Below are positions 1,376 to 30,424 of a DNA stretch of 64,000 nt, one piece after another. The stretch is from assembly GCA_002897855.1 (NCBI GenBank), contig BDTO01000080.1:5623-69622 (forward strand), written 5' to 3'. The DNA comes from a bacterium BMS3Bbin05. Its GTDB lineage: Bacteria; Nitrospirota; Thermodesulfovibrionia; Thermodesulfovibrionales; BMS3Bbin05. Made by a program: the position numbers and the translations under genes. Every line of letters begins with the position of its first letter. Position 1 is the stretch's first letter. The notes below the pieces were generated by a model. That model worked only from the letters and a program-made list of their open reading frames with translations. It did no database searches and was not told the origin of the DNA.

Positions 1376-1394
1376 AGGTTTAAACCTCCTTCAT

Positions 1395-14421: not shown

Positions 14422-14509
14422 ATTCCCCCCGGATGGGATTTCTTCGCTGCAGCAGTCCTATGTGGAATCAAGGAGTCCATGAATTATTTAATAGCAGACA
14501 TTTTGCCTG

Positions 14510-14746: not shown

Positions 14747-14757
14747 AGTTCCCCCTC

Positions 14758-15039: not shown

Positions 15040-15065
15040 TTTTTACCCCCTTTTATGGTTTTTCC

Positions 15066-16298
15066 TTATTTTATTTTTTTAAGGACCTTTTCGAAGGCCT
15101 CAAGATTAGGGTTAATATGATGAGGCTCGCCCATGTGGCCATGGAGTGCCTCCTGGGTCTTCAGACCGTTTCCCGTTATGCATATAACTGTTGTCTCATT
15201 TCTGTCTATATGGCCGCTCTCTATCAGTTTTTTGGTTGCGGCTACAGTAACGCCTCCTGCTGTCTCTGCAAATATGCCTTCCGTTTTTGCGAGCAGCTTC
15301 ATTCCGTCTATAATTTCTTCGTCAGTGACATCCTCACCATATCCTCCCGTATCCTTTACACACTTGTATGCGTAATATCCGTCTGCTGGATTTCCTATGG
15401 CAAGTGATTTTGCAACGGTATCGGGTTTCACAGGTACTATTATATCCGTATCGTTTTTAATAGCTGTTGCTATGGGATTGCACCCTTTTGCCTGTGCGGC
15501 GAATACCTTTGTATCGAGCTTTTTTATAATACCTATTTCCCTGAATTCCTTGAAACTTTTCCATATTTTCGTAAGCAGCGATCCGCTGGCGCATGGTACA
15601 ACGACATTATCAGGCGCTCTCCACCCCAGTTGCTCAACTATCTCAAATCCATGTGTCTTTGAACCCTCGGCGTAGAAGGGCCTGATATTAATATTAACGA
15701 ATGCCCAGTTGTACTTGTTTGCGATCTCGCTGCAGAGTCTGTTTACGTCGTCGTAATTACCATCAACTGCCACGAGATTCGGCCCATATACCAGTGATGC
15801 GGCGATCTTGCTGGCCTCAAGTGAAGCGGGTATGAATATGAACCTGTTGAATCCTGCCTTTGCCCCGAGTGCCGATACGGAATGGGCCAGATTTCCCGTT
15901 GATGCACATGCTACTGTATCAAACCCGAATTCCTTTGCCTTGGTAAGAGCTACCGATACGACCCTGTCTTTGAAAGAAAGGGTAGGGTGTGCAACGGTAT
16001 CGTCTTTTACATAAAGTTCTTTTATGCCAAGCTCTCCGGCAAGGTTGTCTGCCTTTATAAGCGGTGTAAAGCCGGAAGTAAGGCCAACCTGCGGGTTACC
16101 GTCGACAGGTAAGAGTTCCCTGTATCTCCAGAGGTTTTTTTCTCTTTTCTCTATCTTTTTTCTTGTAAGGGCTTTTTTTATCTTTGGATAGTCGTAAGCC
16201 ACTTCGAGAGGGCCGAAACAGAATTCGCATACGTATATGGGTTCAACAGCGTATTCACGGCCGCATTCACGGCATTTCAGACCTTTTATGAAACCCAT
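15066..16298 (-). CDS. threonine-synthase-like PLP enzyme with an N-terminal 4-Cys zinc ribbon
   Basis: 410 aa. N-terminal CRECG..(x14)..CEFC, PLP lysine motif PTLSFKDRVVS, and fold-type II PLP enzyme features. It is a paralog of the thrC 650 bp downstream. Confidence 0.8.
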   Translation of the reverse strand: MGFIKGLKCRECGREYAVEPIYVCEFCFGPLEVAYDYPKIKKALTRKKIEKREKNLWRYRELLPVDGNPQVGLTSGFTPLIKADNLAGELGIKELYVKDDTVAHPTLSFKDRVVSVALTKAKEFGFDTVACASTGNLAHSVSALGAKAGFNRFIFIPASLEASKIAASLVYGPNLVAVDGNYDDVNRLCSEIANKYNWAFVNINIRPFYAEGSKTHGFEIVEQLGWRAPDNVVVPCASGSLLTKIWKSFKEFREIGIIKKLDTKVFAAQAKGCNPIATAIKNDTDIIVPVKPDTVAKSLAIGNPADGYYAYKCVKDTGGYGEDVTDEEIIDGMKLLAKTEGIFAETAGGVTVAATKKLIESGHIDRNETTVICITGNGLKTQEALHGHMGEPHHINPNLEAFEKVLKKIK

Positions 16299-16366
16299 TA
16301 TCTGCCTCCTCTCAAAAAAATGAAATCAATTAGGAATTAGTATTTTAATAAAAAGCAGGGATATTT

Positions 16367-16768
16367 TTAAAGGGGTTTAACAGAAATTTCAACGATTTCG
16401 CCTTCGTTGATGGAAAATGCCTTCAACACAGGTATATCACCGGCAAGACTTACGATGATATATAAAGAATCAGGATAATAGGCAAGCCGTACATCTTTTG
16501 CCGATGGGAATGCCACGGAATCAGGGTGGGAATGATATATGGCGAGCATTTTCTCCTTCCTTTCCCTTATGTCTTTCATTACCTGAAATTGTTCCCCGGG
16601 GTCCATGAAATAGCTTACCCGTGAGTTTTCGGTATTTGTCATATTATATAAATGTGCAGAAGAGAATTCCTTTCCGGCAACAATCCCGCAGACCTCGTCC
16701 GGGTAACCGGCCTTTGCATGATCTATTATTTCATTAATGACGCTTCGGGGGATTCCAATCGTTTCCAT
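16367..16768 (-). CDS. JAMM/MPN+ metalloprotease (Mec/HcyD/QbsD-like)
   Basis: 133 aa. EVCG (catalytic Glu) plus HSHPDSVAFPSAKD, which matches HxHx7Sx2D exactly. Confidence 0.85.
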   Translation of the reverse strand: METIGIPRSVINEIIDHAKAGYPDEVCGIVAGKEFSSAHLYNMTNTENSRVSYFMDPGEQFQVMKDIRERKEKMLAIYHSHPDSVAFPSAKDVRLAYYPDSLYIIVSLAGDIPVLKAFSINEGEIVEISVKPL

Positions 16769-16858
16769 GTTCTATTCGTGAAAGACTTATTACTGACCCG
16801 GATAATCCATAAACCATCTCCGCCGTCCGCATGGCATTTAATTCATGAATAATATGGG

Positions 16859-18088
16859 TTAAAAGGCAACAGCCGGGCTGCAGGTCTGTTGTGAAAAAAG
16901 ATTGTTCAACATTAGATCGATTGCTTCACGGATTGTCGGTATGTATGTTTCTCCTTTTTTTGAGTAAATCCCGTCATTTCTTATTTCATCCAGTCTGGAA
17001 CCGGTGAATAGAAGGCCGTCTTTGAGACCGCGACGTGTTTTCGACAGCCAGTGAGCAATGCAAAACGGTGTTTTTCTGTTCATAAAGCCACAATTCTTTA
17101 TGCCTATGCAGGAAACACACCTTTTCCTCGTCTCGACCACGACTTTTGCCGCTGCCTTTAAGAATCCGTTATCAATATATCTTGACGGCATCCCGGCTGG
17201 ACTGGTCATCGTGGTAATGACCGGATACATGGGGTTCAGGTAAAATTCTTTGATTATTTCGTCGGACATGCCCGATTCCCGGGTCAGAAGCATTCTCGTT
17301 CCGCATGATACACCATTAAAACCCTGCTCCAAAGCCTTTTCGATATCCTCCCTGTACATAATGCCGCCTGCCAGGATTATCGGGATATCCGGATCAAGTT
17401 CCCTGAGACCGTTATAAAGTTCAATGGGTCTGAATTCGCTGTGATCATTTGCCTCCTCTGCATTTCCTGCGCCTAAATGCCCTCCAGCGAATTGAGGCAA
17501 TTCTACGTACCAGGCGTCCGGCTTGCGCCCCTTTCTAATCTGGGCCCTTTTTAGCATTATCCTGGCAGCCCTTACTGAAGAGATGATAGGTGCATAACGC
17601 ATATGAGGGTATCTTAGCATTTCGACCGGTAAATCCGTAGGAAGACCCGCGCCGACAAACAGGATATCAACGGATTTACTTTCGCCGATCACTTTGACCA
17701 GGATTTCGTAATTATTCACCGCTCTCATTAAATTAATACCTAAAATTCCGTATTGAGAATCTTGGCGCACTTTCCGGATCTTCCCGGAAAGTGCTGCCTT
17801 ATCTGTTTCAATAATTAATTTCTTTCTCTCCTCCATAGGCATGTTTTCAAGTTTTTCCTCGAATATATCATTGTACCCGACCAAAGAAGCAGCCAAAACT
17901 CCTATTCCACCCGCACTTATAACAGCGCCGGCCAGATCTTCATTGGAAAAATCGATTCCCATTCCCCCGTTCATTATCGGAAAGAGTATCTTGCGGGAAA
18001 AAACCGCTTCAAGATAATCGTTTTTCTCTTTTTCGGAAGAAAAAACCGGAGCAAGCAGGCTCTGTTCTTTAAGAATGGATTTTACCAT
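16859..18088 (-). CDS. nitronate monooxygenase / FabK-like FMN-dependent TIM-barrel oxidoreductase with a C-terminal Cys cluster
   Basis: 409 aa. PIMNGGMG, AGGIGVLA, FAGGHLG and ILAGGI motifs of the NMO family, plus an extra CVSCIGIKNC..(x9)..C segment. Confidence 0.7.
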   Translation of the reverse strand: MVKSILKEQSLLAPVFSSEKEKNDYLEAVFSRKILFPIMNGGMGIDFSNEDLAGAVISAGGIGVLAASLVGYNDIFEEKLENMPMEERKKLIIETDKAALSGKIRKVRQDSQYGILGINLMRAVNNYEILVKVIGESKSVDILFVGAGLPTDLPVEMLRYPHMRYAPIISSVRAARIMLKRAQIRKGRKPDAWYVELPQFAGGHLGAGNAEEANDHSEFRPIELYNGLRELDPDIPIILAGGIMYREDIEKALEQGFNGVSCGTRMLLTRESGMSDEIIKEFYLNPMYPVITTMTSPAGMPSRYIDNGFLKAAAKVVVETRKRCVSCIGIKNCGFMNRKTPFCIAHWLSKTRRGLKDGLLFTGSRLDEIRNDGIYSKKGETYIPTIREAIDLMLNNLFSQQTCSPAVAF

Positions 18089-18475: not shown

Positions 18476-18820
18476 ATGAATAATCAGTGTTCCCCAAGTT
18501 ATCGTGATTTTATGAAAAAAGTTCGAGCCCGTTATTTAAATGACATATCCGTTTTTATAATATCATTGATAATTCTCTTTCCCTCGATAACGTTCTCATC
18601 CGGCTGGGAGTCGGAGTTTGAGGCGATATGTTCCAAACTAACCATGGCTGACTCCATGAGTATTGAAGAAATCCAGTCTCTTATCGACAGGTCGGATAAA
18701 CTGCTGAAAGTGATCGAGGCTTCAGATAATCCCGGGAAGAAGATATTCATCCGCAGACTTAAAAAGTGCCGTGCCTTTTTCGAATTTTCCATTGAAGTAA
18801 AAAAAGAGAAATCCAGGTAA
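18476..18820 (+). CDS. hypothetical small membrane-anchored/secreted protein
   Basis: 114 aa with one hydrophobic helix (ISVFIISLIILFPSITF). A TTGACA-N18-TAAAAA promoter-like pair lies at about 18440..18469. No recognisable family; coding status is uncertain. Confidence 0.3.
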   Translation: MNNQCSPSYRDFMKKVRARYLNDISVFIISLIILFPSITFSSGWESEFEAICSKLTMADSMSIEEIQSLIDRSDKLLKVIEASDNPGKKIFIRRLKKCRAFFEFSIEVKKEKSR

Positions 18821-18952: not shown

Positions 18953-20599
18953 TTACTGTTTTGTTCCGAGTCCGCCCACGACGAGAGTGAAATATTTTCC
19001 GCCTGCAATATCATTGACCGAGGAAACATTCCATATTCTCACTGGTGAAGATTTGGCAGGCTGATCTTTCAGGTCCTTTCCCCAAATCCATATTGTTCCA
19101 TCTTTCATGAGTGCCATGGAATGATACATGCCGGCGGCAACTTTTCTGATGTTTCCTACGCCACCAACCTCGGAGGGGAGGGAGCCGGCATCATCTTTCC
19201 TGCCAAGCTGGCTGTATTTATTGCCGCCCCATGCCCATACATGTCCGTCTTTCTTCAGCGCAAGGCTGTGATTGAGCCCGGCGGCTATATCAATAATTCC
19301 GGAAAGTTTTTTAACCTTTACGGGTATAAGCCTGTTTACGTTTGTACCGTCACCAAGCAGTCCATTGATGTTCCATCCCCATGCCCGGACAGTTCCGTCT
19401 GAAGCCAGTGCCAAAGTATAATGAAGCCCTGCAGCGACATTTATTATTTTCGGAAGTCCGGTTACGATGACAGGTTCGGTTCTGGTTTTCGTAGTATTGT
19501 CGCCGATCTGGCCGAAAAGGTTCCATCCCCAGGTCCAGACAGTTCCATCGGAGCGTACTGCTGCACTATGATATGTACCGGCGGCAATAGCGGTTATGTT
19601 GGACAATCCTTTAACCTTTACGGGTATATTGCTGTCCCGTATGGAGCCATTCCCCAGCTGGCCGTAAGAATTTCTTCCCCATGCCCAGACAGTACCATCT
19701 GCGCGCAGGGCAAGTGTATGGTACTTGCCTGCCGCAACGTCGGTAACCTTGTAAAGTTCCTTGACCAGTACAGGGATGTGACTGTCCTCCAATGTGCCGT
19801 TACCCAGTTGACCCATGTTGTTTCTGCCCCATGCCCATACGGAACCATCAGACTTGATTGCAACAGAATAGTCCATTCCGGAAGCAACTTTTATGACATC
19901 TTCCATGCCGCCTATCGGCAGAAGTCCATCCCTGCTATTTGTAGTTCCATCACCAAGCTGGCCGTATTCATTAAGGCCCTCTGTCATTATGGCGCCTGCA
20001 ACCGCTTTCTGGGGCATCCAGCTTGAACGTACGGGCCAGAGAAATTTGTAACTGCAGGCCGACATATAATCTATGGTCATTTCGCCGGAAGACATATCAA
20101 GTATCCACACATAATCAATTATATCCCTGCCTGTAGATGACGACCAGTAGAAATGGTTTTGGATATCCACAAACGGATTATTCACCGGAAGAGCAGGATA
20201 GAATTTTGTCCTATCCACCAGTGATTGCAATTCATTGATGGCAGGCATTCGCCAGTCCGTGTACCCGAAATTCGGTCTTTTGCCATAGTTCATTTCACGG
20301 ATATAAAGTTTTGCTCCCTCCCATGTTATGGGAAGTTTACGAATATCGGCATCTTTAAGCCATACAAGACCGGTATCGCTGTCTGTGACGGTTCCATCAC
20401 CGTTATCTGCAAAACGGCCTGCCTGGAATATCGAGGAAACATTACGAGAAGGAACGTTTTCTTTCCCTGCTGTCCTCTTGAGAGATTTAACTTTTCTGTG
20501 CGGGGAAGATGCCGGCCTTTTACTGACAGATGAAGCCTCTGCTGAAAAACCTTGTGAGAAAGAGAAAACGATCACTAATATAAAACAGATAATGCGCAT
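18953..20599 (-). CDS. secreted protein: DUF1566 (Lcl C-terminal-like) domain + seven RCC1-type beta-propeller repeats
   Basis: 548 aa with a signal peptide (MRIICFILVIVFSFSQGFSAEA). DNGDGTVTDSDTGLVWLKDA...WRMPAINELQSL is DUF1566-like. This is followed by repeated W(A/T)WG.N.(Y/F)GQLG(D/N)G blades. Confidence 0.8.
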   Translation of the reverse strand: MRIICFILVIVFSFSQGFSAEASSVSKRPASSPHRKVKSLKRTAGKENVPSRNVSSIFQAGRFADNGDGTVTDSDTGLVWLKDADIRKLPITWEGAKLYIREMNYGKRPNFGYTDWRMPAINELQSLVDRTKFYPALPVNNPFVDIQNHFYWSSSTGRDIIDYVWILDMSSGEMTIDYMSACSYKFLWPVRSSWMPQKAVAGAIMTEGLNEYGQLGDGTTNSRDGLLPIGGMEDVIKVASGMDYSVAIKSDGSVWAWGRNNMGQLGNGTLEDSHIPVLVKELYKVTDVAAGKYHTLALRADGTVWAWGRNSYGQLGNGSIRDSNIPVKVKGLSNITAIAAGTYHSAAVRSDGTVWTWGWNLFGQIGDNTTKTRTEPVIVTGLPKIINVAAGLHYTLALASDGTVRAWGWNINGLLGDGTNVNRLIPVKVKKLSGIIDIAAGLNHSLALKKDGHVWAWGGNKYSQLGRKDDAGSLPSEVGGVGNIRKVAAGMYHSMALMKDGTIWIWGKDLKDQPAKSSPVRIWNVSSVNDIAGGKYFTLVVGGLGTKQ

Positions 20600-20847
20600 G
20601 GTACCCTTTTTTTACATTAATTATGTATTTGTGAGCATTTTGCCTGTCAAAAAATAAAGTTAAGAGAACTTTCTATTTTAATTTAATGATAATATCGATA
20701 TCAAGCACTTATACTAAAAAATTTGAGATTATCTTTACAATTGTTTTATATAACTTTATAATATAACAATTTGTAAGATTTGTGAAATACCGAAATATCT
20801 CGGGTAGTTCTATCTATTATGAGAAAAATAAATTACAGGGAGTTCCT

Positions 20848-22278
20848 ATGTCTGCAAAAATGAGAATGATGCCGGTTTTGACGTTCCTTTTACTGTTGGC
20901 AGGAGTTGCGACTGTATTGGCCGCTGACTTCAATGAGGATTTTGCGTTTAAGATATCCCTCGAGAACCATCTCGAGAGAAGACTTAAACAGATGATTACA
21001 GAGATTACAGGCAATGACAGGGGCGTGGTTATAGTTAACGCAGACATAGGTTCGGTCAGGAGTGGTGATTTAAGCAGGGGCCGTATAACAAAAAAGAAAA
21101 GCCGGGACGCCCTTATTCTTCCGGGAGTGCCTGTAAAAAAGCAATTTGGGACGGGTTTGTCGGAAACAGCCGAGCTTCTCTTCCCTGGAGCAGGGGGGAG
21201 TAAATATAAGGTTAATAAAATAGTGCTTGCGATCTGGCTGGACAGGGGTATTTCGGAACCCGTGGTTGCACTTGTCCGGGACCTTGCAAAGCAGGTCATA
21301 GGGTTCAACGAGAAAAGAGGGGACAAAGTGAACATCCAGTTGATTGATTTTAAGAGAAATAAATTCTACTGGAAATCGGTATTCTATCCTGAAAACCTTT
21401 ACCTTATAATTCTGGGATTAATAGCAGCCATATTTCTTTTGACAGCTTCATTGTTTCTCAGGGACCCGTTCAGCAAGCTTTCCAGCGCTCTCAATAACAT
21501 TGATTGGGATCATCTGAGGGGTACTTCCGGTACTGGAGAGATGTTGAGAGCCGGTTCGGAGATGCAAAACTCCACGTTGGCGCATGAGCCGTCTGAGGAA
21601 TTGGAGCAGGTGAAGGCCGGGGAATCCCCGCCTTTTTCCTTTGTCAGTGAAAAAGACCTGCCCAGCCTCCTGTTCCTGTTAAAGAACATGCCTGCTGAAG
21701 ATATAGCTACCGTGGCGAACTACCTTGATGCAGCCCTGGCAACCAGACTGCTTGAATCTTTCTCTCCTGAAATTCAGTCCGGGATAGCGATATACCTGAG
21801 TAGTGAAAAGATCGACCCCGAAAAGGTCCGCAGTCTTGAAAACACGTTGAAGGAGCAGATCAGTTATGTAATCGGAGGGGAAAGAAAACTCGTATCTATT
21901 CTTCGCATGGCCAGTGAAGAAGTAAAAGACAGGGCCATAGGTGTTCTCGAGAAAAGGGACAGGGATAGTGCAGAAAATCTGAAAAAGAAAGTAAAAGGAT
22001 TTGAAGAGACGATCAGGGACCTGCCTTCGCAGGGAATACAGGTTATTTACCGGAGGACAAACCCTGTGCTGTTTGCCCAGATTCTGAAAGCTTCATCAGA
22101 AGATGTCAGAAAGAAGGTGATGGATTCGATTAGCGAAGGGGCAGCGGAAAGGCTTAAACAGGAAATAGAGCTTAGCCCCCCTCTTTTACCAAGGAGGCTG
22201 CAGAGGGAGAAAGTTAACCTGATGATTATGGTTAATCGTTTTATAGACGAAGGAATAATAGAAGGAGTCAACGGCTGA
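20848..22278 (+). CDS. bitopic/biTM protein fusing a FliF/SctJ-type periplasmic ring-building motif to FliG-like middle and C-terminal (torque) domains
   Basis: The track ORF starts at GTG 20782; the ATG at 20848 with an AGGGAG SD is preferred (476 aa). Order of segments: signal/anchor helix; RBM-like LENHLERRLKQMITEITGNDRGVVIVNADIG...KIVLAIWLDRGISEPVVALVRDLAKQVIGFNEKRGDKVNIQLIDF; TM helix LYLIILGLIAAIFLLTASLFL; then FliG_M-like (NMPAEDIATVANYLDAALATRLLESFSPEIQ) and FliG_C-like (GFEETIRDLPSQGIQVIYRRT..FAQILKASSEDVRKKVMDSISEGAAERLKQEIE...FIDEGII) segments. The domain calls are by eye. Confidence 0.65.
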   Translation: MSAKMRMMPVLTFLLLLAGVATVLAADFNEDFAFKISLENHLERRLKQMITEITGNDRGVVIVNADIGSVRSGDLSRGRITKKKSRDALILPGVPVKKQFGTGLSETAELLFPGAGGSKYKVNKIVLAIWLDRGISEPVVALVRDLAKQVIGFNEKRGDKVNIQLIDFKRNKFYWKSVFYPENLYLIILGLIAAIFLLTASLFLRDPFSKLSSALNNIDWDHLRGTSGTGEMLRAGSEMQNSTLAHEPSEELEQVKAGESPPFSFVSEKDLPSLLFLLKNMPAEDIATVANYLDAALATRLLESFSPEIQSGIAIYLSSEKIDPEKVRSLENTLKEQISYVIGGERKLVSILRMASEEVKDRAIGVLEKRDRDSAENLKKKVKGFEETIRDLPSQGIQVIYRRTNPVLFAQILKASSEDVRKKVMDSISEGAAERLKQEIELSPPLLPRRLQREKVNLMIMVNRFIDEGIIEGVNG

Positions 22279-22280
22279 TT

Positions 22281-23057
22281 ATGGATTTTATGACGCTTAT
22301 AGGTTTGCTGCTCGGGGGGTTAACTGTATATTTCGTTATGGTGTCAGGCCACATCCTTCACATGCTGTTTAATCCGATTGCTGCACTGCTCGTTTTTGGG
22401 GGAACATTCAGTGCTACCCTGATTGCCTATCCATGGGATCTCATTAAACAGACGGTTCCATCTTTCAGGCTCATGTTTTTCCCTAAAAAAAATACTTATG
22501 GACACCTGGGGAACCTTGTGGAAATACTCACATCACTCTCTGAAAAAGCCCGCAGGCAAAGTATCGAGAGTCTCCAGAGTGATCTCGGCAGGATAGATGA
22601 CAGGTTCTTTTCTCACAGTATGCAGATGGTAATCGACGGTCTTGAGACTGACGTGGTAAAGGAGAACATGCAGAGAGAGATTCTCTATTCAAGGCAGAGT
22701 TTCCAGAAAGTCTGCGGTGTTTTCAGAACTATGGCTACACTTGCTCCGATTTTTGGTCTGCTGGGCACACTGATAGGTGTTGTTGAAGTCCTCCGGAACC
22801 TTTCAGACCCTGCAACAATGGGAAGCGGTATGGCGATTGCCATAACAACGACATTTTATGGTATCTTTGCGGCCAACTTTTTGTTTCTTCCCATTGCCAT
22901 CAAGCTCAACGAACACAGCGAAAGAGATGTATTGATCAAGGAACTGATTGCTGAAGGGATTAGTGCAATTCAGGGTGGAGACCTGCCTCTGATTGTCAGG
23001 AAAAAACTCAATGCATTTCTCTCGTCCAATATAAAGGAAAAAAACGAAGGCAGGTAA
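22281..23057 (+). CDS. motA: MotA/PomA-type stator channel subunit
   Basis: 258 aa with a 4-TM layout. Conserved TM3-TM4 core LAPIFGLLGTLIGVVEVL...GMAIAITTTFYGIFAANFLFLPIAIKL. Starts 2 nt after the upstream stop. Confidence 0.85.
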   Translation: MDFMTLIGLLLGGLTVYFVMVSGHILHMLFNPIAALLVFGGTFSATLIAYPWDLIKQTVPSFRLMFFPKKNTYGHLGNLVEILTSLSEKARRQSIESLQSDLGRIDDRFFSHSMQMVIDGLETDVVKENMQREILYSRQSFQKVCGVFRTMATLAPIFGLLGTLIGVVEVLRNLSDPATMGSGMAIAITTTFYGIFAANFLFLPIAIKLNEHSERDVLIKELIAEGISAIQGGDLPLIVRKKLNAFLSSNIKEKNEGR

Positions 23058-23059
23058 AA

Positions 23060-23740
23060 ATGATAAAACGTTTTTTTCTTCTCAGAAACAGAAGGGAAAC
23101 AAGTCCTCTCTGGCTCATCATATTCTCCGACATGACAACCAATCTCATGCTTTTTTTTCTGATACTCTTTGCAATGACCAGGATGACAGCGACCGGCAAG
23201 GAATTGATGATTGAAGGAATGGGAAATGCAGTCAGTGACGAATTGAGGCAGGTCCAGCTTAAGGGTGAAAAGCTTCTCAAACAGATTAAGGACGAAGAAG
23301 CTATAAATAACCTGAGAAATGTGCTTATGCATGGAAAACTGGCCGGCTATACGAAGATGACGGTTGATGAAGACAGGGTAAATATAACACTTAATCCGCC
23401 GCACTTTTTTGCGACCGGCAGTGCCGAGCTGAACCCGGATATTCTAACCGAGCTCGAAAGCCTTGTTGATCCGCTGAAGAGATTTCCCAATGATATAGTA
23501 ATAGAGGGGCATACGGACAATGTTCCGGTAGCCAGCGGTAAATACCGGTCAAACTGGGAACTTTCGATAGCGCGTGCCGTAAGTGTCATAAATTTTTTAA
23601 CGGAAAAAGGATTAAACCCAAAGCAACTCATAACAGCGGGCTATGGCAAATATCACCCTGCATATCCCAATGATACCGAAGAACACCGTGCGCGTAACCG
23701 CCGGATAGAAATTACAATAATAAGGAAACAGAGGTTGTAG
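23060..23740 (+). CDS. motB: MotB-type stator subunit (TM with conserved Asp + OmpA-like peptidoglycan-binding domain)
   Basis: 226 aa. The PLWLIIFSDMTTNLMLFFLILF TM helix carries the MotB Asp. The OmpA-like C-terminus reads GHTDNVP...SNWELSIARA...GYG...P...NRRIEITI. Confidence 0.85.
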   Translation: MIKRFFLLRNRRETSPLWLIIFSDMTTNLMLFFLILFAMTRMTATGKELMIEGMGNAVSDELRQVQLKGEKLLKQIKDEEAINNLRNVLMHGKLAGYTKMTVDEDRVNITLNPPHFFATGSAELNPDILTELESLVDPLKRFPNDIVIEGHTDNVPVASGKYRSNWELSIARAVSVINFLTEKGLNPKQLITAGYGKYHPAYPNDTEEHRARNRRIEITIIRKQRL

Positions 23741-23745
23741 AGACG

Positions 23746-24396
23746 GTGGACTCCATTCAGAAAATGATTTCAAACCTGAAAGACAACGAAGTGGATAGTT
23801 CGCTTTGGATGGTTCCATATAGCACACTTATGCTGATTTTGATGATATTATTTGCAGTTCTCTATGGTATGTCATACATGCAATCAGTTGAATATGAGTC
23901 TGCCATTTCAGAGCTTGACACGGCAAATCCGGGACTGAAAAAGGAGATAATACTGGCCAAGGCCATGCAGAAATATATTGAAGATCATAATTTGACCGGT
24001 CAGGCCGAGGTAAGGGTATCGGCCCGGTTCATAAAAATGGATCTCAAGAGCCCTGCACTGTTTGAAACCGGGAGAGCCAAACTGAAACCGGCCATACTGC
24101 CCCTCTTTGAAGAACTGGCTAAGAACCTGCAGAGGGTGGATAACCGTGTTATTGTGGAAGGCCACACGGACGATGTCCCTATACATAACAGACACTATAA
24201 TTCCAATTGGGAACTTTCGGCAGCCAGGGCGTTCAATGTAATATATTTCCTTATAAAAAGAAATATTGATCCTGCACGTCTGATTGCCCTCGGCTTCGGC
24301 GAATACAGGCCGGCATTCCCGAACAACACCGAAGAAAACCGTGCAAAGAATCGCAGAATAGATATCACGATCATCCGGGAAGGTAAAACTGCATGA
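23746..24396 (+). CDS. MotB paralog lacking the conserved channel Asp (OmpA-like C-terminal domain intact)
   Basis: 216 aa with a GTG start. The TM helix LWMVPYSTLMLILMILFAVLY aligns to WLIIFSDMTTNLMLFF of the upstream paralog with Thr in place of Asp. The OmpA-like region reads GHTDDVP..SNWELSAARA..GFG..RP..NRRIDITI. Confidence 0.75.
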   Translation: MDSIQKMISNLKDNEVDSSLWMVPYSTLMLILMILFAVLYGMSYMQSVEYESAISELDTANPGLKKEIILAKAMQKYIEDHNLTGQAEVRVSARFIKMDLKSPALFETGRAKLKPAILPLFEELAKNLQRVDNRVIVEGHTDDVPIHNRHYNSNWELSAARAFNVIYFLIKRNIDPARLIALGFGEYRPAFPNNTEENRAKNRRIDITIIREGKTA

Positions 24397-25694
24397 AGAG
24401 TGCCATATCTGTTTTCATGATGATATTCCTGTTGACTTCGGTTTCTGTTGAGGCGATATCGCAAAAACAGCTTGAGAGGGTCGAAGAACTCAAGAAGGAA
24501 GCAGTTGAATTGCTCAGACATAAGGAATTCGACAAGGCCGTGCCGGTGCTGAACGAGATACTCTCAATAGACCCGTTTGAGAAGACAGCTAAACGGTATC
24601 TCATGCTTGCCAGACAGCAGTCGATGGAGCCTTTCTGCAAGGAAGCGGCGACGGCTTTCATGCATGACGATTACGCGAGGGCAATTGATATATGGGAAAA
24701 AATTCTCCGGATGAATCCTGATGATTACAGATTTTCCAGGCTGATTGAGATTACAAAGAATCTTATTTCGGACAAGGCAATAAATGATATGTATGTACAT
24801 GCCGATGAATTTCTTAAGAAGGGAGACAAGAAATCCGCCATCAATGAACTTGAGAAAATTCTTTTCGTCAAACCATCTGAAAGACGAGCAAGGGAAATGC
24901 TGGCAACTGCCAGGCAGTCTACATCGGACATCAGGACAAAAAAGCATTATAAACGGGCTGAGAAATATATGAAACAGAAAAAGTATGATCTTGCCATTGA
25001 GGAATGGAATAAGATACTCGAAATAGACGAAACCCAGCAGGAGGCCAAACGATTCATTGCGTCCGCCATAAGGGCGAAACTGAAGGTCCAGTATGCCAGG
25101 GCCAGACGTCTCTATGAGAAAGGAGACTATCTTTCCGCGCGTGATCATTATTACAAGATAATGGTTGACAACCCCACGGATACGAATGTGAAAAGCATAA
25201 TATCGAATCTTGACGAAACGGTCAAGATCGTGAGCAGGCTTAGCCGGAAGGGCAAGACATTTGATATGATGAGAATGGCGCTGAAAAATCATATCGCTGC
25301 GGAAGGAAACAGGAAGGCGGCAATTGTAGCTGCATGGTATGCGGTTCAGCTTGACCCGATGAACAGTACCGCTCTTGCGATAAAGAATTTCCTGGAACAC
25401 AAGTATGTTGCTATTCTTAATACCCTGGAACCTCCCATTGGAGATATGAATATTATTGATCAGTACCTGTTTGCGGCGCTTAACAATATATATGAGGGAC
25501 GTTATGACCGTGCGATCGAGGAATCCACTATTGTTATCGAACTTCAGTCCGATAATGTCCTTGCATGGAAGAGACTTGGTTCAGCATATTTTGCGTTGGG
25601 CAGGAAGGACAAGGCACGCAAGGCATGGAAAAAAGCGCTGAAATTGGCGCCTGACGATGCCGAGCTTAAGAGGTTTATCAGACAAACTAAATAA
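24393..25694 (+). CDS. secreted TPR-repeat protein
   Basis: 433 aa with a signal peptide (MKSAISVFMMIFLLTSVSVEA). Multiple TPR-like units (..Y..A...Y.K.L..DP.. / AWKRLGSAYFALGRKDKARKAWKKALKLAPDD). ATGA overlap with the upstream gene. Confidence 0.75.
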   Translation: MKSAISVFMMIFLLTSVSVEAISQKQLERVEELKKEAVELLRHKEFDKAVPVLNEILSIDPFEKTAKRYLMLARQQSMEPFCKEAATAFMHDDYARAIDIWEKILRMNPDDYRFSRLIEITKNLISDKAINDMYVHADEFLKKGDKKSAINELEKILFVKPSERRAREMLATARQSTSDIRTKKHYKRAEKYMKQKKYDLAIEEWNKILEIDETQQEAKRFIASAIRAKLKVQYARARRLYEKGDYLSARDHYYKIMVDNPTDTNVKSIISNLDETVKIVSRLSRKGKTFDMMRMALKNHIAAEGNRKAAIVAAWYAVQLDPMNSTALAIKNFLEHKYVAILNTLEPPIGDMNIIDQYLFAALNNIYEGRYDRAIEESTIVIELQSDNVLAWKRLGSAYFALGRKDKARKAWKKALKLAPDDAELKRFIRQTK

Positions 25695-25746: not shown

Positions 25747-27204
25747 ATGTTTAAGGCAATGTTAAAAAAAATATTATTTATTCTTATAATTATTGCCTGT
25801 CAGATGCTGATTGGTTCCGTAATTTCCGTCAATTCTGTTTATGCACAGGAAAAAGAATGCCTCAAATGTCATAAGGCGATGACAAAAGGCAAGGTTGTTC
25901 ATGGCGCCCTCCAAAAAGGATGTTCTTCATGCCACCAGTCACCGCACGCGGGAGGCAAACCCGTTCTTTCATTGATATCCGAACAGCCCGGTCTTTGTTA
26001 TAAATGCCACAGCCGCGGGATATTTCTGAGACAACACCAGCATGCCCCGGTAGCTGACGGGAAATGTACGGCATGTCACAACCCTCACTCTTCAAACAAT
26101 GCCGGACTTCTGAAGATAAAACTTACAGACATATGTTTCAGTTGTCATGATAAAAAGATAATCGAAAAAAACTATGTCCATTTTCCTGCCGCGGCAGGAC
26201 TTTGCATATTCTGTCATGATCCTCACAGCTCGGATTACAATGATAAGCTGTATACTTATGATAAGACCGAGCTCTGCCTGCAATGCCACGACAAGGCCGC
26301 ATTGGTTGCGGGGTCATCAGTGCATCAGCCTATAATTGTGGGTGACTGTACTTCATGTCACAATCCACACGGGGCAGATAACAAAAACCTTCTTGTTGAG
26401 AAGATACCCGAATTATGTTTCAGATGCCATGATAGCAGGAATTTTATGAAAGGCATGCTCCATAAACCGGTTGGGCTTGGAAAATGTCTTTCATGCCATC
26501 AGCCGCATAAGTCGGAGTATGACAAACTCCTGATTGCAAAGGAGCCTGAACTGTGTTTCAGGTGTCATGACAAAGCGTCATATATGGGAGATAAGAATAT
26601 TCACAGGCCGGTTGCATCGGGTAGATGTTCTACCTGTCATAAGCCTCATACTTCGAAGTCCAAAAACATGCTTGACGGGGCTGTAGCCGACCTCTGTTTT
26701 AAGTGCCACATGTCACAGGAATTTATGCAGAGGTTTAAACATGGGCCCTTTAAAATTGGTATGTGTAGTGCTTGTCACAACGCACATCAGAGTGAAAACA
26801 ATGAGCTGTTGATCGACAAAGTGCCGGGACTCTGTTTTAATTGTCATAATATTGAAGCATTCAGTCGCCGTAAGATACACAAGCCTGTTGCAGAGGGCAG
26901 ATGCTTTGAATGTCATGATATTCATACCTCTCCTTCCAGGGGATTACTGAAGGCCGAGCCGGACGAAATATGCAGAAAATGTCATAAGAATCTATTTAAG
27001 AGACCACATCCAATTACTAAATTGCCGGGAAAAACTGAAGGACCAAACCAGGGGCACCCGCTTGCAGGAGTTGAAAATCCGAGAAGACCCGGTAACATGA
27101 TGTCGTGCGTGAGTTGCCATGACCCCCACAGCTCCGACTGGGGTAGCCTGTTCCGCTATAAAACAGAAAAACCTGAAGACCTCTGTGGCTACTGTCACAG
27201 ATGA
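25747..27204 (+). CDS. periplasmic multihaem c-type cytochrome, 19 CxxCH motifs (nine di-haem repeat modules + one)
   Basis: 485 aa with a signal peptide ending VYAQE. I counted 19 CxxCH motifs, organised as alternating LC(F/Y)xCH and H.P(V/I)..G.CxxCH.PH units. Confidence 0.9.
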   Translation: MFKAMLKKILFILIIIACQMLIGSVISVNSVYAQEKECLKCHKAMTKGKVVHGALQKGCSSCHQSPHAGGKPVLSLISEQPGLCYKCHSRGIFLRQHQHAPVADGKCTACHNPHSSNNAGLLKIKLTDICFSCHDKKIIEKNYVHFPAAAGLCIFCHDPHSSDYNDKLYTYDKTELCLQCHDKAALVAGSSVHQPIIVGDCTSCHNPHGADNKNLLVEKIPELCFRCHDSRNFMKGMLHKPVGLGKCLSCHQPHKSEYDKLLIAKEPELCFRCHDKASYMGDKNIHRPVASGRCSTCHKPHTSKSKNMLDGAVADLCFKCHMSQEFMQRFKHGPFKIGMCSACHNAHQSENNELLIDKVPGLCFNCHNIEAFSRRKIHKPVAEGRCFECHDIHTSPSRGLLKAEPDEICRKCHKNLFKRPHPITKLPGKTEGPNQGHPLAGVENPRRPGNMMSCVSCHDPHSSDWGSLFRYKTEKPEDLCGYCHR

Positions 27205-27289
27205 AAAGGATGAGATTATCTACTTGGCAGAATTGACTTAATAAAAGGTTTTTTTTAAAATTTAACATCTTATCAGGGAGGTATATATT

Positions 27290-28054
27290 ATGAAATTTAA
27301 ATTTCTATTGCTGTCTTTCATGCTTTTACTGTCCGTCTCTGTTGTGTTGGCTGCGACATTCGGCACAAAGAAAAGAATGAAAAAGCCTTATGAATTCGGC
27401 AATGTCATAATAAATAACTATTCAAAGAAGAGCGAAATTGCCCCGGTTATTTTCAGGCATTGGACACACAGGTCAAAGTATACGTGCAGATTGTGCCATG
27501 TTGATATCGGGTTCGCTATGGAGGCCGGGGGCAGTGATATCAGGGAAGAAGATAACAAGATCGGATTGTATTGCGGAACATGTCATAATGGCAAAATTTC
27601 CTTTGATCTGAAATCGAAAGATAATTGCGTTAAGTGCCACTCCCTCGGAAAAGAGAGTGAGCCCGTTAAGAAATTTTATGAATTTTCAAACAAGATGCCC
27701 AAGGAACGCTTTGGAAACCGCATAGACTGGATGAAGGCCGAAGAGAAGGGAATAATTAAACTCCAGGATTATGTAGAAGGCGTATCGATGAAGAGAAAAC
27801 AGTTGAAGGCGGGGAAGGATTTCGAAGTCAAGTCCAAAATTCTTGGTATGCCTGATATTATCTTCTCACATAAAAAACATGCAGTTATGAACGGATGCGA
27901 ACTTTGTCACCCTGAAATATTCGGCGCAAAAAAGGGTGTTACCAAATATTCCATGGAGGATATATTCGCGGGGAAATATTGCGGCGCCTGTCATGATAAG
28001 GTGGCATTCCCTTTTTATGATTGCCAGCGTTGCCATGTAAAGGAAACATATTAG
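27290..28054 (+). CDS. hexahaem c-type cytochrome (two c7/c3-like trihaem halves)
   Basis: 254 aa with a signal peptide and 6 CxxCH motifs (CRLCH, CGTCH, CVKCH, CELCH, CGACH, CQRCH). Each half begins F(R/S)H..H. Confidence 0.85.
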   Translation: MKFKFLLLSFMLLLSVSVVLAATFGTKKRMKKPYEFGNVIINNYSKKSEIAPVIFRHWTHRSKYTCRLCHVDIGFAMEAGGSDIREEDNKIGLYCGTCHNGKISFDLKSKDNCVKCHSLGKESEPVKKFYEFSNKMPKERFGNRIDWMKAEEKGIIKLQDYVEGVSMKRKQLKAGKDFEVKSKILGMPDIIFSHKKHAVMNGCELCHPEIFGAKKGVTKYSMEDIFAGKYCGACHDKVAFPFYDCQRCHVKETY

Positions 28055-28105
28055 ATTCAGCTGATAAGGTCTGATATCTTTTGTTGATCTGAAAGTGAGA
28101 TCACA

Positions 28106-28864
28106 ATGCAGAGTATAGTCCTGCTTTTTTCCCTTGCTCTTCTGGGAGTGATGAACTACGCAACGTTGTGGGATTTTCCCAAACTCCCTCCGCCCTCACA
28201 ATACGGGAATATTCTGATAAACAGGATATCCGGAAAAAACGGTCAGCTGCCGGTTACTTTTTCACACTGGATTCACCGCATTAAGTATACCTGCAGGGTA
28301 TGCCACTCGGAACTGGATTTTGCAATGGAGGTCAACAAGACGGAAATTACTATGAAAAAAAACCGTGAAGGCGAATACTGCGGTGCCTGCCATAATGGTA
28401 AAACCGCATTTGGATTTACGAAAGAAAACTGTCCAAAATGTCATAATGGAGATATTGCATACGGGTCGGAAAAATTTGAAGAATTCAGAAGACATATGCC
28501 CAAGTCGCGCTATGGGAATAAGATCAACTGGTCAAAAGCCATCGGAAAGAAGAGGATCAAACCAAAAAGCAGTATCAGGGATGATGATTATTCACCAATA
28601 CCTTTCAAAAAGATGCTTGTCCTGAAGTCTGAGTGGTCTCTCACTGCTGACGCCTTTGCTGTTTTTTCGCACAAGAGGCACATCAGGTGGCTTGATTGTG
28701 CTGATTGTCATCCCGATATATTCAATATCAAAAAAAAGGGTACGAAATTCTTCAGAATGAAATATATTCTTGACCGTAAATTCTGTGGCGTGTGCCATAT
28801 GAACGTGGCATTTCCGGTGCAGGATTGCATACGATGCCATCCCGCGCTGGGAAGAAATGAATAG
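28106..28864 (+). CDS. hexahaem c-type cytochrome, paralog of 27290..28054
   Basis: 252 aa with 6 CxxCH motifs (CRVCH, CGACH, CPKCH, CADCH, CGVCH, CIRCH). Spacing and flanking motifs match the upstream gene (PVTFSHWIHRIKYTCRVCH vs PVIFRHWTHRSKYTCRLCH). Confidence 0.85.
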   Translation: MQSIVLLFSLALLGVMNYATLWDFPKLPPPSQYGNILINRISGKNGQLPVTFSHWIHRIKYTCRVCHSELDFAMEVNKTEITMKKNREGEYCGACHNGKTAFGFTKENCPKCHNGDIAYGSEKFEEFRRHMPKSRYGNKINWSKAIGKKRIKPKSSIRDDDYSPIPFKKMLVLKSEWSLTADAFAVFSHKRHIRWLDCADCHPDIFNIKKKGTKFFRMKYILDRKFCGVCHMNVAFPVQDCIRCHPALGRNE

Positions 28865-29015: not shown

Positions 29016-29168
29016 TAAATAGAGTCTGTGTATAAAGTCGGTTTCTCTATCTGTCATTTCCCGACTTAGTCGGGGAATCTATTCTTTTCAATAAATTCCG
29101 GATGTCCCGAAGGCTTTCGGGGCATGACAGGAATAAAAAAACAACAATTTATACACAGACTCTAAATA
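29016..29168 (+). mobile_element. MITE-like element, copy 1 (~153 bp, ~16-bp terminal inverted repeats AGAGTCTGTGTATAAA)
   Basis: taaatAGAGTCTGTGTATAAAgtc...gtcccgaaggctttcggggcatgac...TTTATACACAGACTCTaaata. Homologous copies lie at 40633..40786, 53973..54126 and 54121..54275. Confidence 0.8.
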
Positions 29169-29336: not shown

Positions 29337-30143
29337 TCAGAAATTCATCCTGCAGTAGTCCGCCTCGTAGTCCTGAAGTTCGGTAATCGTAGGATTCTCT
29401 CCGCATACAGGGCATTTCGGATTCTTCGGTACTTTTACTTTCCTGAAACTTACCTTCAGGGCGTCATAGATAAGCATCCGGTTCTGAAGTACGTCGCCTT
29501 TCCCGATGATGAGTTTCAGTACCTCCATAGCCTGAAGTCCTCCGATAATACCGGGCAGGGCTCCGAGTACGCCGGCCTCCTGGCAGGAGGGAACAAGACC
29601 TGCCGGCGGCATCTCTTCAAAGAGGCACCTGTAGCAATGCCCTTGCCTGGGGATGATTGTCGTTACCTGTCCTTCAAACCTCAGTATGGCGCCGCTAACC
29701 AGAGGTTTCCCCACAAGCACGCACGCATCGTTCACAAGGTATCTTGTTGGGAAGTTGTCACTGCCGTCGACTACGACATCACAGTCTTCAATAAGGCCAA
29801 TTATATTATCTTTGGTTATCTTTTCATTCAACGCAATAACCTTGACATCCGGGTTCAATGCCTGAAATGTTTTTTTGGCGGATTCCGCCTTGGGCATACC
29901 CACTCTTTCGGTATTATGTGCAATCTGCCTCTGTAAATTGCTCAGTTCAACATTGTCATTGTCTATCATGACAATGGTTCCCACCCCCGCCGCCGTAAGA
30001 TAGTAACCAACAGGGCAGCCCAGTCCTCCCGCGCCTACTATGACAACTCTGGAGGAGAGAAGCCTTTCCTGCCCCTTGCCACCGACTTCAGGCAGGATTA
30101 TGTGTCTGCTGTATCTGTGAATCTGGTCATCAGTGAAATCCAT
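29337..30143 (-). CDS. MoeB/ThiF/HcyF-type sulfur-carrier adenylyltransferase (E1-like), no rhodanese domain
   Basis: 268 aa. RYSRHIILPEVG..GQ..L, the GAGGLGCP nucleotide loop, and two CxxC pairs (CYRC / CPVC). Confidence 0.88.
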   Translation of the reverse strand: MDFTDDQIHRYSRHIILPEVGGKGQERLLSSRVVIVGAGGLGCPVGYYLTAAGVGTIVMIDNDNVELSNLQRQIAHNTERVGMPKAESAKKTFQALNPDVKVIALNEKITKDNIIGLIEDCDVVVDGSDNFPTRYLVNDACVLVGKPLVSGAILRFEGQVTTIIPRQGHCYRCLFEEMPPAGLVPSCQEAGVLGALPGIIGGLQAMEVLKLIIGKGDVLQNRMLIYDALKVSFRKVKVPKNPKCPVCGENPTITELQDYEADYCRMNF

Positions 30144-30424
30144 TACTCTTTTTCCTTTCTAACCACTATAATCCATTCCCTGTCATTGATCTTTTCAACT
30201 TTTAGTACCTTCTGGCCGTGGTCCTGCATGGATTTTGGAATATTTTCTGTCGCATCTTTGTAGTCAAGCAAAATCTCGAGCACCTGCCCGAGTTCCAAAC
30301 TTTCTATTGCAAGTTTCGATCTTACAAAAGTGTATGGGCAGACGAGTCCCCTGATATCGACTTTTTTGTCCGGTTTGATCTGTTCCATTAAGCCTCCCCC
30401 GAAATTTGAAGAAGAGTCACTCAT
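30143..30424 (-). CDS. TusA/SirA-like sulfurtransferase
   Basis: 93 aa. DIRGLVCPYTFVRSKLAIESLELGQVLEILLD fits the TusA D.RG..CP.P......L..G..L pattern (CPYT in place of CPxP). 1-nt overlap with the E1 gene. Confidence 0.7.
   Translation of the reverse strand: MSDSSSNFGGGLMEQIKPDKKVDIRGLVCPYTFVRSKLAIESLELGQVLEILLDYKDATENIPKSMQDHGQKVLKVEKINDREWIIVVRKEKE

Follow-up and report, generated by a model that had tools for sequence, protein, structure and literature searches.

What are flagellar-type rotor and stator genes doing amid housekeeping genes, and what might they drive? The question is raised by a 64-kb stretch of DNA from the Nitrospirota bacterium BMS3Bbin05 (contig BDTO01000080.1, positions 5,623–69,622; hereafter the window), in which five same-strand genes, g1 to g5, are separated by gaps of 2, 2 and 5 nucleotides (nt) and, between g4 and g5, joined by an ATGA overlap that can be read directly in the sequence. 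An initial annotation, made from the letters alone, had already given these positions, gaps and overlap, and the open reading frames (ORFs) lie exactly where it placed them. The genes encode, in this order, a rotor protein joining a FliF-type ring domain to FliG, a MotA-type stator subunit, two MotB paralogues and a secreted tetratricopeptide repeat (TPR) protein. We consider that this cassette is probably a self-contained, flagellum-independent, ion-driven rotor–stator machine. This reading is strengthened by the conservation of the gene order across phyla, by the co-variation of the rotor–stator interface and by a preprint on Elusimicrobiota, all considered below.

The g1 protein consists of an RBM3-type ring-building domain (RBM, ring-building motif) with a short insert at the collar position, a transmembrane (TM) helix and FliG minus its N-terminal domain. 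The initial annotation had proposed a one-chain FliF-ring/FliG fusion with a single ring motif, flanked by a signal or anchor helix and a second TM helix and followed by the FliG middle and C-terminal domains with the torque helix; the profile and structure searches that it called for bear this out and define the ring motif more precisely, as RBM3-type with a short collar-like insert. At the cytoplasmic end, Pfam recognizes FliG_C (2.1e-13, residues 367–472, 50.9 bits for a cut-off of 23.3) and FliG_M (4.6e-7, residues 274–340, 30.4 bits for a cut-off of 25), and a family profile built from 29 members and run against PDB sequences aligns residues 259–469 with the middle and C-terminal domains (M+C) of Thermotoga maritima FliG (1lkv, 2.9e-38). 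At the periplasmic end, the same profile matches FliF chains (1.8e-4 over residues 40–165, and 3.4e-4 for the end of RBM3 with the second TM helix) as well as SpoIIIAG (0.0099), and the Pfam family YscJ_FliF_C gives full-length matches above its cut-off in the distant relatives P0189 (44.5 bits) and P0145 (37.2 bits). The AlphaFold monomer displays a ring-building fold interrupted by a low-confidence insert of about 50 residues, a TM helix at residues 181–205, a disordered linker (residues 225–258) and FliG-like helices; hydropathy agrees with the model on both hydrophobic helices (residues 7–25 and 181–205). A Foldseek search of the PDB with this model returns FliG M+C first (E ~1e-9), together with FliF RBM3/collar rings (6sd1, 8ftf, 8z5v) at E ~1e-4, with a probability of 1.0 and TM-scores of 0.5–0.58 (target-normalized).

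Residue conservation was counted over about 136 diverse g1 members (132–140 per site), with separate counts for the close family. The LPGVP motif of the insert is kept across the wide family (P92 in 131/132, G93 in 128/132 and P95 in 120/131), as is an RGD motif after the second helix of the ring fold, and the Gly-Gly linker (G343, G344), invariant in the close family, is found in 132 of 140 members of the wide one. Judging from these counts and from those for the rotor–stator contact given below, both the ring motifs and the interface motifs appear to be under purifying selection.

The closest relatives of g1 come from Nitrospirota metagenome-assembled genomes (MAGs), and g1 is 100% identical to P0001, an entry whose NCBI title reads 'flagellar motor switch protein FliG [bacterium BMS3Abin07]'. 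It should not be filed as 'the' FliG or 'the' FliF, because several features that define these proteins are missing: (i) Pfam finds no FliG_N in g1, the profile–structure alignment begins at the middle domain, and the TM helix and the disordered linker stand in its place; (ii) the FliM-binding motif EHPQ(R) aligns to M-P-A-E, and His does not rank among the seven residues most often found at that site across the wide family; (iii) g1 scores 66.8 bits against a cut-off of 226.7 for the NCBIfam fliG equivalog (TIGR00207), and 20.7 bits against 129.75 for the fliF equivalog (TIGR00206); (iv) RBM1 and RBM2 are absent from the periplasmic part, a single domain of about 145 residues, and the FliG-binding C-terminal peptide of FliF is not found in g1. 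The MFXF switching hinge is also degenerate and aligns to V-K-G-F. In g1, as the initial annotation had proposed, a peptide linker replaces the non-covalent joint that holds the FliF tail and FliG_N together in ordinary motors.

The stator genes likewise correspond to their initial description as a PomA/MotA-size A subunit, a MotB with its channel Asp and a second MotB-like protein. By its matches, g2 is of the flagellar MotA/PomA/MotP type and not of the Tol/Ton type: it has a PomA-like length, aligns over its whole length with the flagellar stators of the PDB (1.4e-47 to 4e-33), contains Pfam MotA_N (91.1 bits) and MotA_ExbB (31.2 bits), and matches the NCBIfam models for MotP/MotA at 1e-53 and PomA at 2e-46, versus 7.7e-5 for TolQ. 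Note that it reaches no equivalog cut-off (181.9 bits at best, for cut-offs of 340–394). Membership in the Tol-Pal or Ton systems was rejected on the same grounds, g2 scoring 22.5 bits for TolQ (cut-off 221) and 18.5 bits for ExbB (cut-off 206) versus about 182 for MotP/MotA, and the cassette containing no TolA- or TonB-like gene; no match to the GldL, GldM, TolA or TonB families was seen. The Zorya defence system was discarded too: PADLOC reports no ZorA for g2, generic ZorB (MotB) matches for g3 and g4, and nothing for g1.

Both MotB paralogues carry a plug and an OmpA domain (36.1 and 77.1 bits, respectively, for Pfam MotB_plug and OmpA in g3), and the GTG start of g4 is backed by homologues of equal length. 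They differ at the channel Asp, which we compared in 20 loci and, in addition, in L028, L029 and L031 (our locus numbers). MotB1 has it in all 20 loci (IFSD-x-TNLMLFF; 'IFSD' in g3), whereas in MotB2 the position is occupied by Ser, Ala or Gly in all 20, with Ser in the window and also in L029. MotB2 retains the Asp in L028, from an Elusimicrobiota MAG (positions 13500–14201 of that locus), and in L031 (13091–13852). Because the Asp of MotB2 is present in these two loci and lost in the 20 others, the two MotB paralogues are an old, fixed feature of the cassette, and the loss of the Asp is confined to some lineages. In these lineages, the pattern suggests a heterodimeric B2 axle with a single protonatable site.

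The last gene, g5, encodes a protein with a signal peptide and TPR repeats, in keeping with its annotation as a periplasmic TPR protein, and a signal peptide is present in all g5-type proteins. A predicted model with a fold search, and a sequence search against the PDB, returned generic TPR solenoids and no specific relative; NCBIfam gives a weak match to tol_pal_ybgF (8.4e-6). In other loci, the g5 homologue is part of a fusion, its partner being a PorP/SprF-type barrel in L029, a different barrel-like N-terminal region in L030 and a FecR domain in L005.

If g1 and g2 share a real, private interface, then the two proteins would be expected to diverge jointly at the residues that make the contact. 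FliG sites were located through an alignment to Thermotoga FliG and are given with E. coli residue numbers; the cassette MotAs were aligned with a typed-in E. coli MotA sequence, the register being checked against a Clostridium stator alignment, and the comparison covers 22 proteins (19 cassette MotAs in which the region could be aligned and 3 distant ones). Two charge pairs link MotA to FliG in E. coli: R90 with D288/D289, and E98 with R281 (PMC12505986). On the rotor side, the D289 equivalent (E439 in g1) is Glu in 120 of 136 family members, the D288 equivalent is Gln or Glu, and the K264 equivalent is Lys or Arg in 107/135, this residue (K414) being invariant in the close family. On the stator side, the R90 equivalent is basic in 22 of 22 MotAs, within a conserved ARR motif. 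The second pair is different: the R281 equivalent (G431) is Gly in 122/136, and throughout the lineage of the window, while the E98 equivalent is never acidic in the 22 MotAs (Gln, Ala, Ser, Thr or Arg; Gln in g2). The R297 equivalent is Pro, Thr or Ser, not basic. Thus, as far as the alignments go, the R90/D289 pair appears retained on both partners and the E98/R281 pair neutral on both, a joint divergence of rotor and stator that is what a real, private interface would show. Besides, the cassette MotAs have a conserved acidic residue three positions before the E98 equivalent, in the motif A-R-R-x-G/S-I/L/V-E/D-S-L-Q, and the close g1 family has two conserved charges, E434 and R435, about one helical turn from the old pair site. 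We infer that these new charges pair with each other.

How widely is this arrangement kept? A word-indexed search with g1 returned about 70 clusters of proteins of about 475 residues, and word-indexed searches with profiles of the close and the wide family returned the same ~70 proteins, adding one entry (P0181) but no further taxon. With the g1 family profile, HMMER was run exhaustively on 1.84 billion representative proteins and yielded 300 representatives at E<=1e-30; most of the best 150 of these are nearly full-length (profile positions ~10–470) and 450–735 residues long, about 20 being shorter fragments, and clustering splits the family into many subfamilies. A scan of genome contigs with one peptide pattern located 16 loci. 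All named members belong to the Nitrospirota or the Elusimicrobiota, the latter contributing four, with the sole exception of a contig labelled as archaeal. The five-gene order, whose conservation the initial annotation had proposed to test, is found in about 30 independent loci from Nitrospirota, Elusimicrobiota and unclassified lineages, down to about 25% identity, and is therefore no product of chance.

More specifically, the order g1–MotA–MotB–MotB–TPR is present in L001–L003, L005–L013, L015–L019, L021, L022, L025, L026, L028 and L031, and L014, L020, L027 and L029 are partial cassettes on short contigs. Eleven Nitrospirota loci with full flanks keep it, and several more are partial; it is also present in a complete 2.29-Mb genome (CP070669), in an unclassified lineage at 35% identity, in L025 and L026, two further lineages devoid of any of the neighbour genes seen in Nitrospirota, in the Elusimicrobiota MAG of L028 at about 25% identity and in L031, another distant lineage. 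In the MAG JBAIYC01 'bin_6', the 3′ half of g1 is present, along with the 5′ part of the MotA gene, on each of two contigs (L014 and L019), corresponding either to two copies of the cassette or to a strain-mixed bin. Some long g1 variants carry additional cytoplasmic TPRs after FliG_C, which resemble those of g5 at the generic TPR level only. One of them, RLE71917.1 (P0170/P0216; 705 residues, with cytoplasmic C-terminal TPRs), is encoded on the 4.9-kb contig labelled 'Thermoprotei archaeon', which is probably mis-binned because it is short and its MotAB relatives are of bacterial type.

The isolation of the cassette from other flagellar genes, which had been noted at the outset, holds over the part of the window that was screened: no flagellar or chemotaxis family was found elsewhere, either among the called genes between ~10.8 and 50 kb or among the ORFs of >=150 residues at both ends, the stretches outside this screen being a few short intergenic pieces and small ORFs. 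The other genes identified in this screen serve housekeeping functions (glycogen, amino-acid, pyrimidine and NAD metabolism, succinate dehydrogenase, an ABC transporter). Likewise, no other flagellar family occurs in those of the relatives' loci whose genes were annotated with Pfam. According to a preprint, structural flagellar genes are absent from free-living Elusimicrobiota, which nevertheless possess motAB and fliG genes, whose role was called 'unclear' or enigmatic (bioRxiv 10.1101/2022.07.08.499144). The preprint gives the gene names only: the architecture of the fusion, the cassette as such, the second MotB, the TPR protein and the changed interface are not described in it. The genes that it names are very likely the same genes as those of our cassette, because the family members with Elusimicrobiota names sit in the same five-gene arrangement.

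Table 1. Features of the cassette and of its surroundings (coordinates in the window; aa, amino acids; residue numbers are those of g1).
Feature	Coordinates	Strand	Remarks
g1, rotor protein: FliF-RBM3 ring domain with FliG middle and C-terminal domains	20848..22278	+	476 aa
g1 N-terminal hydrophobic helix, residues 7–25	20866..20922	+	hydropathy 2.32; signal peptide (possible VLA/A site) or first TM anchor
g1 periplasmic ring-building domain, residues 27–170, alpha-beta-beta-alpha-beta	20926..21357	+	AlphaFold2 (AF2), Foldseek, profile; homologous to FliF RBM3 and SpoIIIAG
g1 insert, residues 70–119, between the two first strands, at the FliF beta-collar position, with LPGVP motif	21055..21204	+	pLDDT <50
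g1 second TM helix, residues 181–205	21388..21462	+	AF2 model, hydropathy; disordered cytoplasmic linker after it
g1 FliG middle domain, residues 259–340, PFSF motif at start	21622..21867	+	Pfam, profile
g1 FliG C-terminal domain, residues 367–472	21946..22263	+	torque helix: residues 427–441, nt 22126–22170
g2, MotA/PomA-type stator A subunit	22281..23057	+	258 aa
g3, MotB1: TM helix with channel Asp IFSDMTTNLMLFF, plug, OmpA-type peptidoglycan-binding domain	23060..23740	+	226 aa
g4, MotB2: architecture as g3, Ser at the channel-Asp position (LPYSTLML)	23746..24396	+	216 aa, GTG start
g5, secreted all-helical TPR protein	24393..25694	+	433 aa; start overlaps the g4 stop
RCC1-repeat beta-propeller protein with Lcl_C domain, secreted	18953..20599	-	548 aa; divergent from g1
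Promoter-like site TTTACA-17-TATAAT	20734..20762	+	~85 nt 5′ of g1; 11/12 consensus match only
Multihaem cytochrome c genes	25747..28864	+	25747–27204 (19 CXXCH), 27290–28054 (6), 28106–28864 (6)
Terminator-like hairpin, 10-bp stem and T run	29056..29078	+	3′ of the last cytochrome gene; pattern match only

The expression signals around the cassette (Table 1) include an AGGGAG ribosome-binding site 7 nt upstream of the g1 ATG. The promoter-like site, the best match of the region, lies in a divergent intergenic stretch of 248 nt that g1 shares with the gene for the RCC1/Lcl_C protein. On the other side, the first of three multihaem cytochrome genes begins 52 nt after g5 on the same strand. The hairpin that follows the third is the strongest terminator-like site of the region; an eight-gene transcript comprising g1–g5 and the three cytochrome genes is possible, because a pattern scan revealed no terminator-like site between g5 and the end of the third cytochrome gene. 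Rfam finds no RNA element between positions 18000 and 29500.

Both neighbours recur in Nitrospirota, where the conserved block extends beyond the five genes noticed in the initial annotation. At least 12 Nitrospirota loci, and also L027, have the RCC1/Lcl_C gene upstream of g1, and a second Lcl_C protein is encoded in L003, where we also noticed a 370-residue ORF with OmpA-like (30.3 bits) and Paired_CXXCH matches. The three cytochrome genes directly follow g5 in 11 Nitrospirota loci and are absent from L005, L025, L026, L028 and L031; they are best described as a lineage-specific accessory block, possibly co-transcribed with g1–g5. Further multihaem cytochromes are encoded 3–6 kb upstream in many of these 11 loci. 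Other lineages have other accessories. A signal-peptide protein of about 640 residues, without any Pfam match and ending in ...RISYSF or ...RISITF, is encoded in three loci with 34–35% identity among them: in L028 (15086–21393) and L031 (14798–19225) its region also contains FecR-domain and CARDB-like proteins, and in L020 (538–2469) it stands alone. We take it to be a putative outer-membrane protein. Giant fn3 proteins are encoded beside the distant cassette of L031. In L029, the region upstream of the cassette (1–4139) encodes a large fn3/Ig protein with a FlgD_ig/CHU_C-like end, the fusion of a PorP/SprF barrel (28.7 bits for a cut-off of 22.3) with a g5-like TPR module, and a 158-residue HAMP protein, an arrangement that recalls the gene pairs of cargo and PorP/SprF proteins in type IX secretion. 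Since no homologue of the ~640-residue protein, of the PorP/SprF-like barrel, or of the FecR and CARDB proteins is found in the Nitrospirota loci or in the window, these genes are also lineage-specific accessories. Judging from their predicted products, all these contexts have a common theme, as they point to the periplasm, to the outer membrane and to the surface of the cell.

A few features of the window have no evident connection with the cassette. A small ORF (18476–18820, plus strand), which contains a hydrophobic segment and matches no Pfam family, lies between the RCC1 gene and a gene of the NMO family, and a 102-residue gene is called at that place in the source contig and in L001. Two PALP enzymes and ThiS-like, NIL, JAB-type and NMO-family genes (13327–18088, minus strand) on one side of the cassette, and ThiF and TusA genes (29337–30424, minus strand) across it, look like a sulfur-carrier-protein route to sulfur amino acids. 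Finally, a gene of about 200 codons without Pfam match directly follows carA (61722–62354, plus strand), and the complete relative L001 has a no-Pfam gene of similar size between carA and carB (910–1515); it appears to be a conserved uncharacterized insert of the carbamoyl-phosphate synthase operon.

How might the cassette work as a self-contained machine? By analogy with what is established for FliF, FliG and MotAB, g1 would oligomerize through its ring-building domain into an inner-membrane ring, under which the covalently joined FliG parts would form a cytoplasmic torque ring in a 1:1 ratio. The OmpA domains would anchor units of the MotA5/MotB2 type to the cell wall; in the lineage of the window, these units would probably be MotB1/MotB2 heterodimers with one channel Asp, or else a mixed population. 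The flow of H+ or Na+ through the stator units would make the ring turn, torque being transmitted between two retained residues, the R90-type Arg in MotA and, in the FliG helix, the D289-type Glu, with the help of the relocated charge pair. Because the FliM-binding motif, FliG_N, the MFXF hinge and the switch, export and axial genes are missing, this ring would probably be unidirectional and non-switching, and it would neither carry a rod nor house an export gate, the latter because RBM1 and RBM2 are absent. The most speculative step concerns the output, which could pass through the periplasmic collar of g1 (the LPGVP loop) and the TPR protein to outer-membrane or secreted partners. The partners would depend on the lineage: the RCC1/Lcl_C protein and the multihaem cytochromes here, the ~640-residue protein, FecR proteins, or the PorP/SprF–TPR fusion with fn3/Ig proteins elsewhere. 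The resulting role would be that of an engine that moves, secretes or energizes envelope or surface proteins. That the cassette belongs in this way to an unseen trans-envelope machine, in which a flagellar-type ring is turned by MotAB, possibly in the absence of any flagellum, and a TPR adaptor hands the rotation over to outer-membrane or surface proteins, is a possibility that we put forward tentatively.

Comparison with known systems helps to situate the cassette. It shares with the flagellar motor's core (FliF, FliG and MotA5B2/PomAB) the RBM3-type domain, FliG M+C, the Gly-Gly linker, the torque helix, the R90-type Arg and the plug, Asp and OmpA domain of MotB, and the mode of torque generation is presumably alike. 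It departs from this core in that FliF and FliG parts are in one chain, without RBM1, RBM2, FliG_N or a conserved EHPQR and with a degenerate MFXF, in that no FliM/N, export-gate, rod, hook, filament or che genes are near, in that the E98/R281 pair is neutral on both partners, and in that two MotBs and a TPR protein are fixed in the operon. Salmonella mutants that carry a fusion of FliF and FliG remain motile. Engineered Vibrio fusions form rings, according to two reports (PMC10941966, PMC11481574), and the PDB entry 8z4d is among the matches of our family profile. Like g1, the engineered or spontaneous fusions of Salmonella and Vibrio alginolyticus link FliF and FliG covalently, and they still permit ring formation; unlike g1, which is natural, shortened (RBM3 and FliG M+C) and stand-alone, they contain full-length FliF and FliG and operate in a complete flagellum. 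The natural fusion of Chlamydiaceae, mentioned in the initial annotation, does exist but has another architecture: it is about 330 residues long and comprises RBM2, a second RBM-like domain and a FliG-middle-like region only (Bergeron 2016, PMC4768692). It is similar to g1 as a shortened FliF with a FliG-like cytoplasmic part, in organisms that are not flagellated; compared by its description, it has no torque domain, whereas g1 has 476 residues, RBM3 and FliG M+C and lies beside MotA and MotB genes, and the same article discusses it with type III secretion proteins and mentions no stator operon (PMC4768692). These differences in size, domains and operon led us to reject an identity of the two.

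Periplasmic TPR proteins tied to MotB-type stators are known as well. PflA and PflB of Campylobacter and Helicobacter, and FlcA of the spirochaete collar, decorate a complete flagellum in this way; no sequence relationship between them and g5 was found past generic TPR similarity. As for ion-driven motors outside the flagellum, AglRQS of Myxococcus combines one A subunit with two B paralogues, as does the cassette. GldLM/PorLM, AglRQS-Glt, Tol-Pal and Ton all couple an ion-driven A5B2 inner-membrane unit to the periplasm, the outer membrane or the surface (PMC9389320, PMC8986121), and the PorP/SprF-type barrel fused to the cassette TPR in L029 adds a likeness to type IX secretion (GldLM/PorLM). 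These systems nevertheless lack a FliF/FliG rotor, and their A subunits are of the TolQ/ExbB/GldL type, in contrast to the flagellar-type g2.

Several observations weigh against a self-contained machine with an envelope output. The Pfam YscJ_FliF_C match of g1 itself (1.6e-4, residues 119–168, 22.6 bits) is just under the cut-off of 23.8, and its monomer model is moderately confident (mean pLDDT 69.7, pTM 0.31), with the collar-like insert left unmodelled. The equivalents of R281 and R297, two of the five classical FliG charge positions, are not conserved. The long-variant locus L030 has no stator genes beside g1, and no axle or output element was identified. The case for an envelope output draws on few neighbourhoods, as the accessory genes vary between lineages: one locus has the PorP/SprF–TPR fusion, and three encode the putative outer-membrane protein. 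Finally, a canonical flagellum may coexist elsewhere in a carrier genome, and the cassette could cooperate with it. The cassette might then be an accessory or alternative part of that flagellum, g1 being a divergent FliF/FliG that works with the ordinary flagellar genes; under some other condition it could, for example, supply another rotor or an additional set of stators. Some cultured Nitrospirota are indeed flagellated, extra stator sets are common in bacteria, NCBI and JGI both give the name 'flagellar motor switch protein FliG' to family members, and within this genome our search for flagellar genes covered the window. Against this, g1 is devoid of RBM1 and RBM2, which house the export gate, as well as of FliG_N and EHPQR, and falls far under the fliG and fliF equivalog cut-offs; the Pfam-annotated loci contain no flagellar neighbour, the family occurs in Elusimicrobiota reported without flagellar structural genes, and the joint divergence of the interface argues for a private pairing. 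We regard this explanation as decidedly improbable.

A static docking platform, akin to Tol or Ton, deserves somewhat more credit, unlikely as we consider it. Here g1 would make a ring, or a smaller oligomer, without turning; its FliG_C would only recruit and unplug MotA/MotB, and force would reach the TPR protein and outer-membrane partners directly, through the rotation of MotA around MotB or through extension of the periplasmic MotB domains, much as in Tol-Pal, Ton or GldLM. No other non-flagellar 5:2 motor known so far uses a large rotor (review PMC9389320), and several traits of the cassette are consistent with such a mode: a gene for a secreted TPR protein after the stator genes, reminiscent of CpoB/YbgF in tol-pal operons (with the weak tol_pal_ybgF match of g5), two peptidoglycan-binding B paralogues of which one is Asp-less in the lineage of the window, and outer-membrane or secreted neighbours. 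However, the MotA is of the flagellar type, with an expanded cytoplasmic torque domain, and not a TolQ or ExbB; the whole family retains a ring-building domain like RBM3 of FliF; and selection maintains a full FliG M+C, with its Gly-Gly linker and torque helix, together with a MotA loop that co-varies, which exceeds what docking needs. A sensor is far less probable still. In that case the FliG/MgtE_N-like domain and the MotAB-like channel would sense ions or envelope stress and control the neighbouring envelope proteins, in line with the weak MgtE_N matches in g1 (8.2e-5), the recurrence of FecR-domain proteins, either in the vicinity of the cassette or as fusions with its TPR protein, and the small HAMP protein beside g1 in L029; but no DNA-binding or sigma-factor gene is consistently linked to the cassette, the conserved residues are those of a torque interface, and the MgtE_N match is sub-threshold and lies beneath the stronger FliG_M match. 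An MgtE-type transporter domain was also rejected. As to the idea of a decaying, now functionless remnant of flagellar genes that were otherwise lost, the presence of just a few flagellar-type genes amid housekeeping genes might evoke it; it is effectively refuted by the intact full-length frames, the invariant motifs, the conserved fusion and a gene order fixed in about 30 loci to about 25% identity across phyla.

The self-contained, flagellum-independent machine thus remains our favoured reading, and the system appears to be undescribed: a flagellar torque core used alone. The literature that we could search, in an incomplete library, holds nothing specific on the cassette beyond the remark of the Elusimicrobiota preprint, and in a recent survey of the relatives of MotAB, stators of the flagellar type are all taken as flagellar (PMC12505986). 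There is, in our opinion, a substantial chance that the cassette drives an envelope machine of a wholly new kind. If the trans-envelope reading is true, it would be a new drive for surface-protein transport, gliding or secretion, and in Nitrospirota a link to extracellular multihaem cytochromes may follow.

To our knowledge, every FliF/FliG rotor known so far is used within a flagellum, and the known non-flagellar 5:2 motors (Ton, Tol, GldLM, Agl and Zorya) are rotorless. A conserved stand-alone rotor with its stator would constitute a third arrangement, in which the torque core works, or once worked, without type III export and an axial filament. This would bear directly on the evolutionary assembly of the flagellar motor: with RBM3, FliG M+C and MotAB only, the cassette could be a relative, still living today, of the minimal rotor–stator core that gave rise to this motor or out of which it evolved. 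It would also offer structural and single-molecule work a stripped-down natural motor, in which a single rotor protein couples the rings 1:1, a switch is lacking and the charge interface has been wired anew. For the Elusimicrobiota, it indicates concretely what the unexplained motAB and fliG genes of members without flagella may be. For the Nitrospirota, where the cassette is fixed beside large multihaem cytochromes, it raises the question, which can be tested, whether a rotary engine is connected with extracellular electron transfer or with attachment to surfaces.

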